From a virus, in the UHGV virus genome UHGV-0120184: a stretch of 14,793 nucleotides of DNA; one strand, written 5' to 3'. Below, in pieces: positions 9,563 through 14,508 of the stretch. The notes under the pieces are model-generated. The model was not told the origin of the DNA. It saw nothing but the letters and a program-made list of their open reading frames with translations, and searched no databases. Position 1 is the stretch's first letter. Each line of letters opens with the position of its first letter. The position numbers and the translations under genes were made by a program.

Positions 9563-9690
9563 TATCTGTTTCTTATATTCTTTTTATGAAGTTACTGATT
9601 AATTTATATTAAAACAACACATTCATAATGAAATCAACATGTTCATATGGTTGACGGCAGATTTCTCTTTTTGTTAACCTGCATCTGCAT

Positions 9691-9939
9691 TAACTGTCGC
9701 TTCGGCGACCACCAATGTTCCATAGTGGCCTGTGAGGAACGCCTTCGGGTGGCCCATGTCGCTCCGGCGACCACCAATGCTCCATATGACCTGTGAGGAG
9801 CGCCTTCGGGTGGTCAGTTTTACACCTCCGTAGCCTGAAAGGAGCTGTGAGTACTGAAGGGAAACATCCCTGATGTATGGGCAAATCTGCACACCTTTGA
9901 GAGCAGATGTCACTACGGTTTTACGTGATGATGAAGGCA
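9691..9939. repeat. Direct repeat copy 1 (~249 bp), containing two tandem ~62-bp sub-repeats (9696-9757 and 9758-9817) and a hairpin-rich 3' half
   Basis: It is ~98% identical to 12484-12733 (constant offset 2794; the central ~170 bp are identical). Sub-repeat unit: gtcgctYcggcgaccaccaatgYtccataKRRcctgtgaggaRcgccttcgggtggYcMR. It has a cgcc-UUCG-ggug tetraloop-type hairpin and a gaccacc/ggtggtc stem. ORFs 9674..9940 and 9690..9884 (-) overlap it in two frames and look like repeat artefacts. Confidence 0.9.
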
Positions 9940-10117
9940 TTCCGGATTCCGTTCCGGTACTTTTATTTTTTCTCAGCAGACAGGCATAAAAACGCCTTTA
10001 AAATCTGCGTCTTAAGATATTTTCTGACTTTCCGCATGAGCTTCTTATGACTGTGCGCACGGCATAAGACCATTTGAAATTTGGTCGCTTGCGTGTGCAT
10101 GTGGAGTTTGAAGCTGT

Positions 10118-10163
10118 GCGGCGTCACTTGCGTGCGACCGAAGGGAACACCAAGTGACGCCGC
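10118..10163. repeat. 13-bp perfect inverted repeat (gcggcgtcacttg ... caagtgacgccgc) with a 20-nt loop, in the GC-rich leader region upstream of the recombinase gene
   Basis: Arms at 10118-10130 and 10151-10163. Further hairpins lie nearby (tgcc-ctgaa-ggca at ~10171-10183; cgtccgt-tttcaca-cggacg at ~10291-10309). Confidence 0.6.
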
Positions 10164-10210
10164 GGCCATCTGCCCTGAAGGCAGCATCACGTAAGGTCTG
10201 GCAGAAAATC

Positions 10211-10260
10211 GTCGCTCGTGACAAGCGTCCTGATGCTCGTTTTGTCGCTCTGACAACGTC
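10211..10260. promoter_or_regulatory. Two direct repeats of a TGACAA-containing motif (gTCGCTCgTGACAAgCGTC / gTCGCTC-TGACAA-CGTC), iteron-like candidate protein-binding sites
   Basis: Units at 10211-10229 and 10244-10260. TGAC/GTCA cores recur across 10120-10275. Confidence 0.35.
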
Positions 10261-10605
10261 TTTCGGTGACGTATCCACGCCTTTCCGGCGCGTCCGTTTT
10301 CACACGGACGGCCACGCCGGAATGTCTTCTTAAACTTCGTAATACATGAGAGGTAAGTGTATTAACTGACTGAAATAAAGGAATAAAAATGAAAAATCGT
10401 TCTGATGTCGGGAGGCGTCATCGTAAGGTGACGGGGAGTATTCCTCAACAATCGCCCTGGTGCACAGGTAGCGAACTCCTGTAAGAACTCAACATGTGCA
10501 AGCTCTGCTACATCGACATCAAACGAGCCAGGAAGGCGAACAACCGCGTTACAGAGCCGTCCGTGATGACGAAAAACTAACAATATCAACGAACTTTTCT
10601 GTTTA

Positions 10606-10682: not shown

Positions 10683-11600
10683 ATGGCCCGGAAATCGTCA
10701 CGTTCTAAAGTTGAACTGTTTCGCAAGTCTTTCATCTCACTTGCCCGTGAGTGTGGTGGCAGTTACGCAACAACAGCTGACAGAATGAGAATTGCAAAGT
10801 ACTTCCTGAATTATTTACGTGAAAATGGAATTAAACTTCGCCAGACGAGCAGTATTAAAACCAGACATATTTCTGGTTACCTTCTCAGCAGGAAAGCAGC
10901 GGGTATTTCTCACCGGACTATTCAGAATGAACGGGCGGTTATGCGTGCCATTTTAGAAAAAGATGGACGACTTAAAATCGCAGATCCTTCTAACCCATTA
11001 TTGAGTAATGAAGCGCTCGGCCTAAAGGATACATGCCGTGATGGAAAGAAAATAGCATTGTCACCGGATGAATTCTGGAAAGCATTTGCTAAAGTGGAAA
11101 AAAAGAATCCTGGTGTGGCAGCTGCAATGCAGCTTTCTTATGTTCTGGGTTTAAGAACAAAAGAAGCCGTTCAGTCATGTAAGTCTGTTCAGTCATGGCT
11201 ACGGGAACTGAATTCAGGGTGCGATTCTCTTTCGGTCGTTTTTGGTACGAAAGGTGGAAGACCAAGAAATACCACAATTATTGACAGAGATGCGGTAAGA
11301 CATGCTTTGCTTTATGCTCAAAAAATAATGGATGAACACGACGGAAAACTTATTGACCGTCCAAATATAAAACAGGCTATCAATGTTTTTCGTTATCATG
11401 CCCGTAAAGCGGGATTGTCAGGAGTGAAATCTCCGCACAGTATGCGTTATCATTTTTCTCAGGAAGCCAGAAAATTTTATCGAAAAAATGGATATGGAGA
11501 GTCGGAAATCTACGCTCGTGTTTCTATGGATCTTGGCCATGGTGACGGAAGAGGTCGTTATGTAAAACAGGTTTATTTTAACGGTTCTGATGAAAGTTGA
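10683..11600 (+). CDS. Tyrosine site-specific recombinase (phage-integrase family), 305 aa
   Basis: The catalytic-domain signature is visible: box I LGLRTKEA (Arg), a GTKGG lysine hairpin, box II HSMRYHF (His-x-x-Arg), and LGHGDGRGRYVKQVY (His ... Tyr nucleophile). The N-terminus has a core-binding (SAM-like) domain pattern (IKLRQ.SSIKTRHI..Y......G.S.RTI.NE....R). Confidence 0.8.
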   Translation: MARKSSRSKVELFRKSFISLARECGGSYATTADRMRIAKYFLNYLRENGIKLRQTSSIKTRHISGYLLSRKAAGISHRTIQNERAVMRAILEKDGRLKIADPSNPLLSNEALGLKDTCRDGKKIALSPDEFWKAFAKVEKKNPGVAAAMQLSYVLGLRTKEAVQSCKSVQSWLRELNSGCDSLSVVFGTKGGRPRNTTIIDRDAVRHALLYAQKIMDEHDGKLIDRPNIKQAINVFRYHARKAGLSGVKSPHSMRYHFSQEARKFYRKNGYGESEIYARVSMDLGHGDGRGRYVKQVYFNGSDES

Positions 11601-11603
11601 TAT

Positions 11604-12341
11604 TTAAAATGAATCTGGAGGATATGTGTTTTTGTTAATTTCGGTTATGATGATTTCTGATGCGCGATTACACATATCTTCATCAAAATACCCAATATGA
11701 CATTCATGAATGTGACAATTCAGTTTTCTGGATAGCCATATATTTGCCTCGTTACGGGATATGTTGGCTCTTTGCTGATAATTGTCAAAAAGTTTACGTA
11801 CTTTTGTTCTGAGTATTCTCAGGTTTTCTTTAGCCGGAGTACCTAATGGTCTTCCTGAGTTTTTATGGCATCCAACCCATGCATTGCATGGGGGACAAAT
11901 CCAGTAATATTTGTTTTCTGTCGCGGCTGAAATGGAAAATGGCATGAGAGCCCCTTTTATAAGATTCGTCTTATTTCCACAGTATGGGCAGATAACAATT
12001 GGTCGGACATCTGCAATATTCAGTGATGTATAAGTCAGTCGTTCATTTTTAACGATGTTTCTCTTTCCGCAATGGGTGAGAACATGCTTTATTGTATCTA
12101 ATTCTTCTCGTAGTATTTTGGAACTGACGCCAGTGCGATAACGTTGTTGAAAATAGCATTCAATATGACGTAGTTTTATGCTATTTGCTGAGCTTATCTG
12201 TATATTGGCATCTTTAAGAAATGAAGCAAGTCTTCTGGCTCTTCCCGTATATACCAACATATCTTCTGGCGTCGGGGCGCATGCTTTGGCTATTCTGAGT
12301 AGTTCATCTTTTAATTTTTTGTATTTCGATTTCATTTTCAC
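11604..12341 (-). CDS. Recombinase-N-domain paralog lacking a catalytic domain, fused to an Ogr/Delta-like C4 zinc ribbon (245 aa)
   Basis: Its N-terminal ~90 aa aligns with the N-domain of the adjacent recombinase (SFLKDANIQISSANSIKLRHIECYF..RYRTGVSSKILREELDTIKHVL versus YFLNYLRENGIKLRQTSSIKTRHISGYL..RKAAGISHRTIQNERAVMRAIL). The C-terminus has CPYCG-x26-CPPC with ENKYYWIC, paralleling the Ogr finger in this same window (CPYCG...REKYYQC..C), plus an extra CHIHECH cluster. No R/HxxR/Y catalytic motifs. A promoter-like CTGACA-N17-TATTTT lies upstream. Confidence 0.65.
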   Translation of the reverse strand: MKMKSKYKKLKDELLRIAKACAPTPEDMLVYTGRARRLASFLKDANIQISSANSIKLRHIECYFQQRYRTGVSSKILREELDTIKHVLTHCGKRNIVKNERLTYTSLNIADVRPIVICPYCGNKTNLIKGALMPFSISAATENKYYWICPPCNAWVGCHKNSGRPLGTPAKENLRILRTKVRKLFDNYQQRANISRNEANIWLSRKLNCHIHECHIGYFDEDMCNRASEIIITEINKNTYPPDSF

Positions 12342-12483
12342 ATCTCTCTTACAGGTTCATAAAGAGTGTTACTGAATTAAAAAATATCAAATTGAGCTGG
12401 CCTTGTCAGTCAGCTGTAGGTTATTACCATAGCCACGACAACAACTTGAAGTTTTATGTTGTTTATGATTATATTTTAGACGC

Positions 12484-12733
12484 TAACTTGTCGCTCCGGC
12501 GACCACCAATGTTCCATAGTGGCCTGTGAGGAACGCCTTCGGGTGGCCCATGTCGCTCCGGCGACCACCAATGCTCCATATGACCTGTGAGGAGCGCCTT
12601 CGGGTGGTCAGTTTTACACCTCCGTAGCCTGAAAGGAGCTGTGAGTACTGAAGGGAAACATCCCTGATGTACGGGCAAATCTGCACACCTTTGAGAGCAG
12701 ATGTCACCACGGTTTTACGTGATGATGAAGGCA
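12484..12733. repeat. Direct repeat copy 2 (~250 bp), same internal tandem sub-repeat structure as copy 1
   Basis: See copy 1. ORFs 12469..12678 and 12483..12782 (-) are repeat artefacts mirroring those across copy 1. Confidence 0.9.
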
Positions 12734-12851: not shown

Positions 12852-12866
12852 CATTCGGAGGTTCCG

Positions 12867-13268
12867 ATGTTTATACCACTTTTGTTACGTGCAGATATGC
12901 GCATAACGCCTTTCTTTCATCTTCTCAGACAATGTCTGTTTAATCAGAAGCGTTGTGTTCACCCACAACAGCCCTGGTCCGCTCCACAACTGAGGCATCT
13001 GTACTGCACTCCGTGGTTTATTAACGCCACCGGCAATCTGTCAGTCAGAGCCTGCATTGTTTCCACCAACGGTGCATTGCGACACTGCTTTGAGTTCCGT
13101 GAAGGCTCTCACAGCCGTGAATATCGTTACTGGTTTGAGGCACTTCCGCTGTCTGTCGTGCGGTTTAATGTCTTTACCGGTCGAATATCTGCTCGCCGCA
13201 CGCTTTCTGCTGCCTCCCGTATGGCCGTGCAGCTTACTTCTTTTCGCTATCGCTTCGGTCTTCGCTGA
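12867..13268 (+). CDS. Hypothetical protein (133 aa, Arg/Cys/Trp-rich); coding status uncertain
   Basis: The ATG at 12867 is preceded by GGAGG at a good distance. The composition is unusual and no family was recognised. The track ORF begins earlier at 12795. Confidence 0.35.
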   Translation: MFIPLLLRADMRITPFFHLLRQCLFNQKRCVHPQQPWSAPQLRHLYCTPWFINATGNLSVRACIVSTNGALRHCFEFREGSHSREYRYWFEALPLSVVRFNVFTGRISARRTLSAASRMAVQLTSFRYRFGLR

Positions 13269-13432: not shown

Positions 13433-13813
13433 ATGGGACTCGATATTTTTTTCCTTGGGCGTGATCGTGTTACCGACGCGGTAGTATCGGTACCGGAAAC
13501 GCGGGAAGTGGGTTACTTTCGCAAGGTTAACCCACTGATTGCCTGGTTTGAGACGCATTGTGGACCGGTTGAAAATGCCGTGGAGCGTCCGGTTTCCAGA
13601 ACGGAACTGGAGGCACTACTGAGCGATCTTGAATGCCTTACGCCGGAGAACTGCCGGGAATTCTTCCCCACAACAGAAGGATTCTTTTTTGGTTCTCAGG
13701 AGTATGACCAGTATTACTGGAAGGATGTTGAGATCGTGAAATCGTGGGTCAGAAGCACGCTTGATTCGTTTGATTTTGAACGAAAAATACTGTTGCTCTG
13801 GGCATGGTGGTAA
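13433..13813 (+). CDS. Hypothetical protein (~126 aa) ending ...SWVRSTLDSFDFERKILLLWAWW
   Basis: The ATG at 13433 has AGGAG 7 nt upstream and follows a terminator. The ORF is open to 13813. A paralogous C-terminal fragment lies at 14359-14508. Confidence 0.5.
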   Translation: MGLDIFFLGRDRVTDAVVSVPETREVGYFRKVNPLIAWFETHCGPVENAVERPVSRTELEALLSDLECLTPENCREFFPTTEGFFFGSQEYDQYYWKDVEIVKSWVRSTLDSFDFERKILLLWAWW

Positions 13814-13913: not shown

Positions 13914-14393
13914 ATGAATAGTCTGTTAATACTCCTTTACGTTGTTGTATGCCGTGCCTGCACCATTCTTCGGGTAATCGCACCAGTGTCGTCTGTCCGT
14001 GCGTGGTGTGAGTATCAACTGGAAGGTATGACGATACTTCGTGATGCGTACAGCTCGCTGGCTAAGGCGGCTGGAATGCAGAATGATGCATTTGAATATC
14101 TTGAAAGTATTGCTCGTCATCTGGGCTACGAAAGCGGTGGTGACCAACTGAAATCAGGACTTTTCCGGCCGTTTCTGTGGCATATACGTGCGAAAGGCCA
14201 CAGGCTGGGAGCTGTCATGGAAATGGCGGTATGGCAGGCATGGAAGAATGGCTGTAACGATGTCTGCAATCCATGGGAGGATGTCTACAATCCATGGGAC
14301 CGTGGATGGAACGATGGCTGGACTGAATGTCTGGATCAACGTATAGCCGGTCTCCTGAAGGCGGTCTGTATTGACTTTTCCGACGCCGACTGA
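13914..14393 (+). CDS. Hypothetical protein (159 aa) with a Trp/Asn-rich C-terminal repeat (NPWEDVYNPWDRGWNDGW)
   Basis: The ATG at 13914 has GAGGTG 5 nt upstream and a hairpin plus T-run in the preceding intergenic. No family recognised. Confidence 0.5.
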   Translation: MNSLLILLYVVVCRACTILRVIAPVSSVRAWCEYQLEGMTILRDAYSSLAKAAGMQNDAFEYLESIARHLGYESGGDQLKSGLFRPFLWHIRAKGHRLGAVMEMAVWQAWKNGCNDVCNPWEDVYNPWDRGWNDGWTECLDQRIAGLLKAVCIDFSDAD

Positions 14394-14508
14394 ACGGTTT
14401 TTCTTTTACTTACTGTACCGTGTACCTGCGTCGGTGGCGTGGGTCAGCGATACGCTGAAGACGTTTGATTTTGAGCGTCATTCACTGGTGATGCTGGCGT
14501 TGTGGTAA
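14359..14508 (+). pseudogene. Start-less C-terminal gene remnant paralogous to the 3' end of the 13433-13813 gene
   Basis: The frame from 14359 reads ...VPASVAWVSDTLKTFDFERHSLVMLALW*. This parallels ...VKSWVRSTLDSFDFERKILLLWAWW* of the upstream gene. It has no plausible start codon and is out of frame with the preceding ORF. Confidence 0.4.

Follow-up and report, generated by a model that had tools for sequence, protein, structure and literature searches.

The 14,793-nucleotide (nt) stretch of the UHGV virus genome UHGV-0120184 analysed here (the window) lies in an integrative conjugative element (ICE) of the Salmonella pathogenicity island 7 (SPI-7) type at tRNA-Phe in Escherichia coli: a 351-nt query matches the chromosomes of five E. 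coli strains, S19-651 among them, with 100% identity, and the gene order of S19-651 corresponds to the order of the open reading frames (ORFs) in the window. The stretch contains a 245-nt direct repeat (9695–9939 and 12489–12733, 99% identity), and both repeats belong to the STAXI RNA motif, which had been catalogued before. Three positions distinguish the two copies, and over approximately 175 consecutive nt they are identical, in agreement with the identical central 170 base pairs (bp) noted in a preliminary description that was made from the sequence alone. Each copy opens with two head-to-tail units, located in copy 1 at 9696–9757 (62 nt) and 9758–9817 (60 nt), which share 54 of 62 aligned positions as compared to a mean of 33.5 and a maximum of 39 in shuffled controls. 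Tandem Repeats Finder did not list this 62-nt array, which was confirmed by direct alignment; both the coordinates and the dyad-rich character that the preliminary description had assigned to the large repeat and its units of about 62 bp are correct.

In an Rfam scan, STAXI (RF01728) was matched by copy 1 with 78.2 bits and by copy 2 with 75.5 bits, in both cases on the + strand only and over the full model (positions 1–153), and a third copy in the same island scored 78.7 bits. The curated gathering scores are 40.5 bits for STAXI and 51.2 bits for EFASI, a second motif described below. Such a scan had been proposed in the preliminary description, which offered a structured RNA as an alternative to recombination or binding sites and counted membership in a known small RNA (sRNA) family against its proposal. 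A known family was indeed found, but the structured-RNA claim itself stands, resting on the Rfam match, strong covariation, a wobble bias towards one strand and a conserved promoter. The two copies and the parts of copy 1 are located as follows.

9695–9868, + strand: STAXI motif copy 1, extent of the Rfam model (RF01728, 78.2 bits versus a gathering score of 40.5)
9696–9757, + strand: unit 1, with a 5′ hairpin at 9696–9709 and the linker CACCAAT (homologue and Rfam alignment)
9758–9817, + strand: unit 2, with a 5′ hairpin at 9758–9771 and a UUCG hairpin at 9802–9811
9818–9884, + strand: unit 3, a variant pseudoknot unit (Rfam alignment and homologue comparison)
9885–9939, + strand: conserved tail past the Rfam model (RNAalifold and pair counts)
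12489–12733, + strand: STAXI copy 2 (Rfam match 12489–12662; 99% identity with copy 1 over all 245 nt of the domain)

Unit 1 begins with its 5′ hairpin (GUCGC-UUCG-GCGAC), after which the linker CACCAAU is conserved. The remainder of the unit comprises a helix of GUUCC (9717–9721) with GGAAC (9736–9740), an outer stem of GGCC (9727–9730) with GGCC (9751–9754), and an inner hairpin (GCC-UUCG-GGU, 9741–9750). Since GGAAC is placed 5′ of the inner hairpin and separates it from the outer stem, the first of these helices forms a pseudoknot. Unit 2 keeps all three pairings of unit 1 by means of compensatory changes (GCUCC/GGAGC and GACC/GGUC), with the pseudoknot helix formed by 9779–9783 and 9797–9801 and the outer stem by 9788–9791 and 9812–9815. 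In unit 3, CUCC (9826–9829) pairs with GGAG (9841–9844), and in the present lineage an enlarged loop contains a GGGA-AACA-UCCC hairpin (9859–9870). The tail consists of a hairpin of AUCUGC and GCAGAU (9885–9908, loop ACCUUUGA), which is conserved with covariation in homologues, and a hairpin of UCAC and GUGA (9910–9929). In addition, CCUU in the loop of the former (9894–9897) might pair with AAGG (9934–9937); CCUC co-occurs with GAGG among the tails, but this pairing has to be regarded as tentative because the sequences were selected for it. The overall fold consists of a 5′ hairpin, two canonical and one variant capped pseudoknot units, whose caps are mostly cUUCGg, and two further hairpins, and these elements together occupy the entire 245-nt repeat. 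As the structure continues past the 153-position model, the repeat represents one complete conserved domain.

Homologues were obtained by a pattern scan of species-representative genomes, which yielded 120 loci, nearly all of them in Enterobacterales (genera include Pectobacterium, Erwinia, Pantoea, Serratia, Yersinia, Photorhabdus, Xenorhabdus, Edwardsiella, and Morganella). Units were taken by position only, using the anchor CTGNGA and without requiring pairing. Among the 134 units the pseudoknot helix was paired in 89% versus 72% with shuffled partners, and the outer stem in 97% versus 77%. In a gap-free alignment of 77 distinct units from many genera, 99.2% of the cells were paired versus 84.9% in shuffles; this value was reached by none of 500 shuffles, and sliding the partners by 1–3 columns left 37–51% paired. 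Changes on both sides were found in all five pseudoknot pairs and in three of the four outer-stem pairs (8 of 12 pairs overall). For the tail hairpins, RNAalifold analysis of 30 diverse tails revealed compensatory changes in 10 of 11 pairs. The covariation analysis advised in the preliminary description has hence been carried out and yielded strong covariation across the 77 homologous units, but in the pairings given here. Among the stems named in that description, the UUCG hairpins (9741–9750 and 9802–9811), GGGA-AACA-TCCC (9859–9870) and ATCTGC…GCAGAT (9885–9908) are present, whereas gaccacc…ggtggtc and ccac…gtgg are not conserved pairings and are not kept in homologues. Two other interpretations of conserved sequence elements were also dismissed. 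A CsrA-type GGA sponge was dropped because GGA is part of the pseudoknot helix, where a change in the partner brings GAAAC, GAAGC, GUGGC, or similar sequences in its place, and of the tRNA-like “CCA” ends after each hairpin only CCAAU is conserved.

The pairings also indicate the strand. On the + strand, 184 G·U stood against 16 A·C among the non-Watson–Crick pairs, and 70 against 16 when the pair that is partly fixed by the search pattern was omitted; due to this excess of G·U over A·C, we conclude that the + strand sequence is the folded one. In 127 of 134 cases the loop is a UUCG closed by C-G, and the value of such loops as an RNA-specific argument has been pointed out in the passage on STAXI by Weinberg et al. 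(PMC2864571). Energy folding alone is not informative as to the strand (minimum free energy of −101.4 kcal/mol, z −2.7, for the + strand and −95 kcal/mol, z −2.1, for the − strand). Covariation was relied on instead, because folding restricted to nested pairs cannot see pseudoknots.

Upstream of each copy in the window a candidate promoter was found.

9651–9679, + strand: sigma-70-type promoter of copy 1 (TTGACG, 17 nt, TTAACC), read from the sequence, with a predicted start at about 9683–9689
12446–12475, + strand: sigma-70-type promoter of copy 2 (TTGAAG, 17–18 nt, TTATAT/TATATT)

Such a promoter precedes the first hairpin by approximately 10–15 nt in copy 1, copy 2, the third copy, and homologues, and it is kept in homologues with otherwise unrelated flanks (e.g., TTGACC-18-TAGTAT and TTGACG-17-TACTAT). 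TTGACA-like −35 boxes occur at a fixed upstream distance in homologues, with an exact TTGACA in 33 of 104 elements, and the −10 box ends 46–49 nt before the CTG of the first unit, or one unit length further upstream if the second unit was the one detected. Since STAXI starts 10–15 nt after its own predicted promoter, it would form the 5′ end of the primary transcript. Judged from these sequence features, STAXI is the 5′ domain of predicted + strand transcripts, with same-strand genes following it.

The ICE encodes ParA, a SPI-7-type DnaB, ParB, topoisomerase III, ssb, TraD, TIGR037xx transfer genes, and TraG, and furthermore contains a type IVB pilus operon with shufflon, a nickase/helicase, and an integrase. 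According to Rfam it carries three STAXI copies, which are at least 97% identical over about 245 nt and have unrelated flanks. Copy 1 heads EFASI and a gene for a tyrosine recombinase of 305 amino acids (aa) with the domains PF12834 and PF12835; copy 2 heads the gene of a 133-aa protein (start 12867) and the operon running to ArdC; and the third copy (S19-651, L129:25732–25905, outside the window) is located between topB and STY4534/DUF3577-ssb. This three-copy arrangement reproduces the STAXI acronym exactly. Near-identical copies between unrelated flanks imply concerted evolution of the three. A two-copy layout with a distance of 2.4–2.8 kb is also found in other genera, but there the copies differ from each other, and for this reason the near identity within the island looks like the result of recent gene conversion. 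Genes that recur downstream on the same strand are DUF3577, a 116–133-aa protein family that includes the window gene at 12867 and is found after STAXI in other genera as well, and PF12835 recombinases. The genes of the 223-aa and 245-aa proteins, in contrast, are divergent neighbors on the − strand and not downstream of the motif. The preliminary description had considered the copies as leaders, in − strand sense, of the 223-aa operon and the 245-aa gene. The idea of a shared leader is retained here, but its strand has to be corrected, as the sense of the motif is on the + strand, where it precedes + strand genes. The same description had asked whether the copies always flank recombinase genes, and this holds for only one of the three island copies (copy 1).

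Between the STAXI copies and the coding regions, and further downstream of copy 1, the following features were identified.

9942–9973, + strand: terminator-like hairpin (CCGGA…UCCGG, then a U-rich run) directly after copy 1
10120–10161, + strand: long hairpin GGCGUCACUUG…CAAGUGACGCC, the core of a middle domain and conserved in an alignment of 37 distinct modules
10397–10525, + strand: EFASI RNA motif (RF02957, 72.3 bits versus a gathering score of 51.2)
10683–11600, + strand: gene of the 305-aa tyrosine-recombinase-like protein (PF12834 and PF12835), the usual gene downstream of EFASI
12855–13268, + strand: small hairpin UCGGAGGUUCCGA (12855–12867) over the ribosome-binding site, and the gene of the 133-aa protein

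A terminator-like site follows the tail in about 30% of the homologues and is missing in about 70%. In the hairpin UCGGAGGUUCCGA, the AUG begins at the last base, and in the third copy (L129 ~26050–26098) GUGUUCUCC…GGAGAACAC precedes the start of STY4534 and forms a 9-bp helix in which UUCUCC pairs with the GGAGAA ribosome-binding site of this gene. Such hairpins, which would sequester ribosome-binding sites after STAXI, suggest translational control.

The location of EFASI is typical of its family: it shares the strand of STAXI copy 1, follows this copy after a few hundred nt, and precedes an integrase gene. It differs from STAXI in its fold, and neither copy 2 nor the third copy is followed by it. 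Across genera, EFASI lies at an almost invariable distance from the last STAXI unit (424–607 nt, mostly 505–550), and the interval contains the middle domain (10040–10330), which consists of the long hairpin and flanking conserved blocks and was found in about 40 loci of many genera at a near-constant distance; it has no Rfam match at E ≤ 1. The closing stem of EFASI co-varies, and in about 26 loci the recombinase gene starts approximately 130–160 nt after EFASI. The 305-aa recombinase itself had no match in a PDB sequence search or in NCBIfam. The complete module of promoter, STAXI, middle domain, and EFASI also occurs on small plasmids without the recombinase gene, namely a 3.1-kb E. coli plasmid (NZ_CP059920) and a 4–8-kb ColE1-like family of Pantoea, Cronobacter, and relatives; on such small ColE1-like or Rep plasmids no same-strand gene follows the module. 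At and beyond the 3′ end of EFASI lies a strongly conserved stretch (10510–10565; AUGCACAGAUACCAGUCGAGACGCAGGAAGCGCAAAAG…CGUCGGGG in most homologues) that reads as the Arg/Lys-rich peptide MHRYQSRRRKRKSNRVVG and in some genomes shares the reading frame of the recombinase. As its first part co-varies as an RNA stem, the stretch probably does not encode protein. The 245-aa protein (11604–12341, − strand), whose gene is convergent to and adjoins that of the recombinase, combines the N-terminal SAM-like domain of this recombinase family (PF12834) with a DUF3268 zinc finger and has no catalytic domain.

STAXI was described in 2010 by Weinberg et al. (PMC2864571), whose passage on the motif names Ssb, topoisomerases, anti-restriction proteins, and XerDC-type integrases as encoded in its neighborhood in Enterobacteriales, and leaves undecided whether it is active as RNA or as single-stranded DNA (ssDNA). 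The present copies share with the family a score far above threshold, tandem pseudoknot units, UUCG loops, and an Enterobacterales host. The pseudoknot unit, tandemly repeated two to three times in STAXI, is represented by two canonical units and one variant; UUCG tetraloops are found at 9744–9747 and 9805–9808 and also in the first 5′ hairpin (9701–9704); and the neighbors ssb, topoisomerase III, ArdC, and integrase are shared as well, with one copy between topB and STY4534-ssb, one ahead of the PF12835 recombinase, and one ahead of the ArdC operon, all in E. coli. There are, however, differences. In the present lineage unit 2 is preceded by an additional 5′ hairpin and the loop of unit 3 is enlarged, structure is conserved for about 70 nt past the 153-position model, and the fixed upstream promoter and the three concerted copies per island are not mentioned in the passage on STAXI in PMC2864571. 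EFASI owes its name to a position between STAXI and integrases further downstream, as quoted in PMC12370729. RNA of both motifs was detected by reverse-transcription quantitative PCR (RT-qPCR) in E. coli vesicle preparations (PMC12370729), and apart from this study the later literature on STAXI that was found consists of incidental mentions only. The non-protein-coding RNA StyR-137 of Salmonella Typhi, a 46-nt cDNA with two SPI-7 copies that is reported as “antisense to t4317” and gave a positive Northern blot (PMC2943607), may be STAXI, in which case transcription would be documented independently. The feature is already known, and little is added here as a discovery because the family, its neighbors, and its partner EFASI have all been described earlier. 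The additions are incremental and concern the strand and promoter, the extended domain, the three-copy layout of the SPI-7-type element, the conserved middle domain, and the occurrence on small plasmids.

Open reading frames do exist across the repeat on the − strand, and the STAXI antisense strand is unusually free of stop codons. One of them, an 88-aa ORF (9674–9940, − strand) antisense to STAXI, is a RefSeq hypothetical protein (WP_016237203.1) in some genomes, but other genomes with identical DNA leave it unannotated, and an NCBIfam search gave no match for it. The longest antisense open frame of the homologues lies in any of the three frames when the conserved core is taken as reference (35/34/26), and none of the unit periods (46, 47, and 61 nt) is divisible by three. 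A protein-coding gene on the − strand was rejected, as no reading frame is conserved among homologues. This bears out the impression in the preliminary description that the ORFs crossing the repeats are non-coding, and the annotation of WP_016237203.1 is probably spurious.

The count of copies per genome that had likewise been proposed there was made: close copies are present in 34 of 5426 complete E. coli genomes, with a median of three per genome. Looser matches occur in 675 E. coli genomes and are mostly a single-unit remnant in the O157-type urease island. This remnant (e.g., in the urease/tellurite island of E. coli O157:H7) retains the first STAXI unit only and adjoins the L31-hok-223-aa genes, and the rest of the motif was cut off by an IS66-family insertion. 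Neither a blastn search of the repeat against phages nor a megablast search against plasmids gave a match.

What, then, might STAXI do? Probably it is a leader RNA that acts in cis as a shared regulatory tag, a role we infer from its position and structure. It would constitute a common cis leader domain (“regulon tag”) on the transcripts of several island operons; the repeated pseudoknots could either be bound by one putative factor or protect or modify the transcript, and expression of the DNA-processing and establishment genes of the island would be coupled through STAXI. The terminator-like hairpins and the hairpins sequestering Shine–Dalgarno sequences between STAXI and the coding regions would be the candidate expression platforms via which it acts, and the one- to threefold repetition of the unit suggests protein binding with avidity or a physical block. 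Features of a leader are present in the position of the predicted promoter and in the same-strand genes, and candidate platforms that would be coupled to STAXI are located at 9942–9957, at 12855–12867, and in the third copy. However, some observations do not fit this role easily. A terminator-like hairpin immediately follows copy 1, which therefore could be a free sRNA of about 285 nt; on small plasmids the module has no downstream gene in the same orientation, and there a purely cis role cannot be the whole story; and the RT-qPCR detection in PMC12370729 was not strand-specific. Alternatively, STAXI could be regarded as a free, trans-acting sRNA, for example a sponge or decoy whose two to three repeated pseudoknots sequester a host or ICE protein, with the downstream genes being expressed independently. 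We consider this unlikely, although Rfam classifies STAXI as an sRNA, promoter and terminator-like hairpin of copy 1 would give an RNA of the above size, about 30% of the homologues have a terminator-like site after the tail, STAXI and EFASI occur as a module alone on small plasmids, and the variable number of units (1–3) fits avidity-type binding. It conflicts with the roughly 70% of homologues that lack such a site, with the same-strand genes of a few recurrent families that follow at short, similar distances, and with the third copy, where by inspection no strong independent promoter lies between the tail and the start of STY4534.

The near-constant distance between STAXI and EFASI across genera, the conserved domain in this interval, the co-varying closing stem of EFASI, and the same recombinase family about 130–160 nt after it in some 26 loci would also be consistent with one composite RNA of approximately 0.85–1 kb, which comprises STAXI, the middle hairpin domain, and EFASI and works with the PF12835 recombinase as cofactor, guide, or autoregulatory leader. 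Such a composite is improbable, as copy 2 and the third copy stand ahead of other genes and lack both EFASI and a recombinase, the module on small plasmids has no recombinase either, and a terminator-like site separates STAXI copy 1 from the middle domain; to our knowledge, RNA-dependent tyrosine recombinases are without biochemical precedent. Very improbable is a function as folded ssDNA in conjugative transfer or replication, be it as priming site, Frpo-type single-strand promoter, or folded recombination substrate. The DNA-handling genes of a conjugative element in the neighborhood speak for it, DNA tolerates G·T wobble pairs, and the possibility was raised in the passage by Weinberg et al. 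(PMC2864571), but an ordinary duplex sigma-70 promoter is conserved just upstream and outside the hairpins, cUUCGg loops stabilize RNA specifically (an argument from the same passage), pairing is kept by one strand only, the same module resides on non-mobilizable small plasmids, and RNA has been detected by RT-qPCR (PMC12370729). Finally, it is extremely improbable that the element represents protein-bound double-stranded DNA repeats (an operator or recombinase arm sites) or a coding gene on the − strand (the 88-aa ORF). Compensatory changes keep pairing and not sequence, pseudoknot pairing is senseless for duplex DNA, the open frame is not fixed relative to the core, and the unit periods given above are no multiples of three; the 88-aa ORF moreover has no NCBIfam match and is unannotated in other genomes with the same DNA. 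These points outweigh the tandem, dyad-rich nature of the units, the unusually open antisense strand, and the RefSeq annotation of the ORF in some genomes. The recombination or binding sites proposed in the preliminary description are not supported either, since the helices co-vary, unlike in a protein-binding DNA repeat, and only one of the three island copies is associated with a recombinase gene.

A more far-reaching version, which we regard as quite unlikely, assumes a much larger RNA system of modular design in SPI-7-type conjugative elements and some small plasmids, with STAXI as its 5′ domain and not as a stand-alone sRNA. In one setting STAXI, joined to EFASI by the conserved and previously undescribed middle domain, would be part of a structured RNA of about 0.9 kb that acts with a divergent tyrosine recombinase, and elsewhere STAXI would tag replication/ssb and anti-restriction operons for one common factor. 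If true, this would amount to an RNA-level master switch for ICE establishment. Also as the shared leader of ssb/replication, recombinase, and anti-restriction operons, STAXI, which has been in Rfam since 2010, would provide a handle on the establishment of the island after transfer, and SPI-7-type islands are widespread elements that carry virulence and resistance. For genome annotation, the sense of the motif is on the + strand, its conserved domain comprises about 245 nt and not 153, and the “hypothetical protein” on the opposite strand is probably spurious.

Three known systems resemble STAXI in part. The tandem pseudoknots prompted a comparison with type III antitoxins. The antitoxin locus of ToxIN consists of a promoter, tandem repeats that fold into pseudoknots, and a terminator, and STAXI shares with such ToxI-type systems the promoter, tandem direct repeats each forming a pseudoknot, and, in copy 1, a terminator-like hairpin. 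Its units, however, are imperfect, 46–62 nt long, and only one to three in number. Searches of the genes downstream of STAXI (tyrosine recombinase, the 133-aa protein of unknown family, and DUF3577) with Pfam, NCBIfam, PHROGs, and PADLOC gave no ToxN/AbiQ-like or other toxin match, and a type III antitoxin was ruled out, as no toxin-like gene follows. The put RNAs of phage HK022 and the EAR element of Bacillus are promoter-proximal, cis-acting RNAs that modify transcription. Their likeness to STAXI is positional: a structured RNA with a pseudoknot directly follows the promoter, terminator-like hairpins lie downstream, and several copies per mobile element each head a different operon. There is no similarity in sequence or fold, and no Rfam match to these families was obtained. 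With Frpo and ssi, which serve as promoters or priming signals on ssDNA in the leading regions of plasmids, STAXI has in common that it is non-coding, repeated, and highly structured and precedes ssb and anti-restriction genes of conjugative elements. In Frpo, the −35 and −10 sequences are contained in a long imperfect hairpin of the transferred strand, whereas the predicted STAXI promoter is an ordinary duplex outside the structure. An ssDNA signal of the Frpo/ssi type is unlikely because of this location of the promoter outside the fold and because the pairing bias and the UUCG loops point to RNA.

Towards the end of the window, some further repeats were observed. A 71-nt repeat with 70% identity (13743–13813 and 14438–14508) corresponds to the C-terminal ends of two ORFs (…FDFERKILLLWAWW and …FDFERHSLVMLALW, each up to the stop). 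A 45-aa ORF (14371–14508) looks like a truncated paralogue of a 126-aa gene (phrog_7971). Within the gene of a 159-aa protein, a perfect-frame 21-bp tandem duplication with 95% identity (14259–14299) gives rise to a CNPWED/YNPWD peptide repeat.

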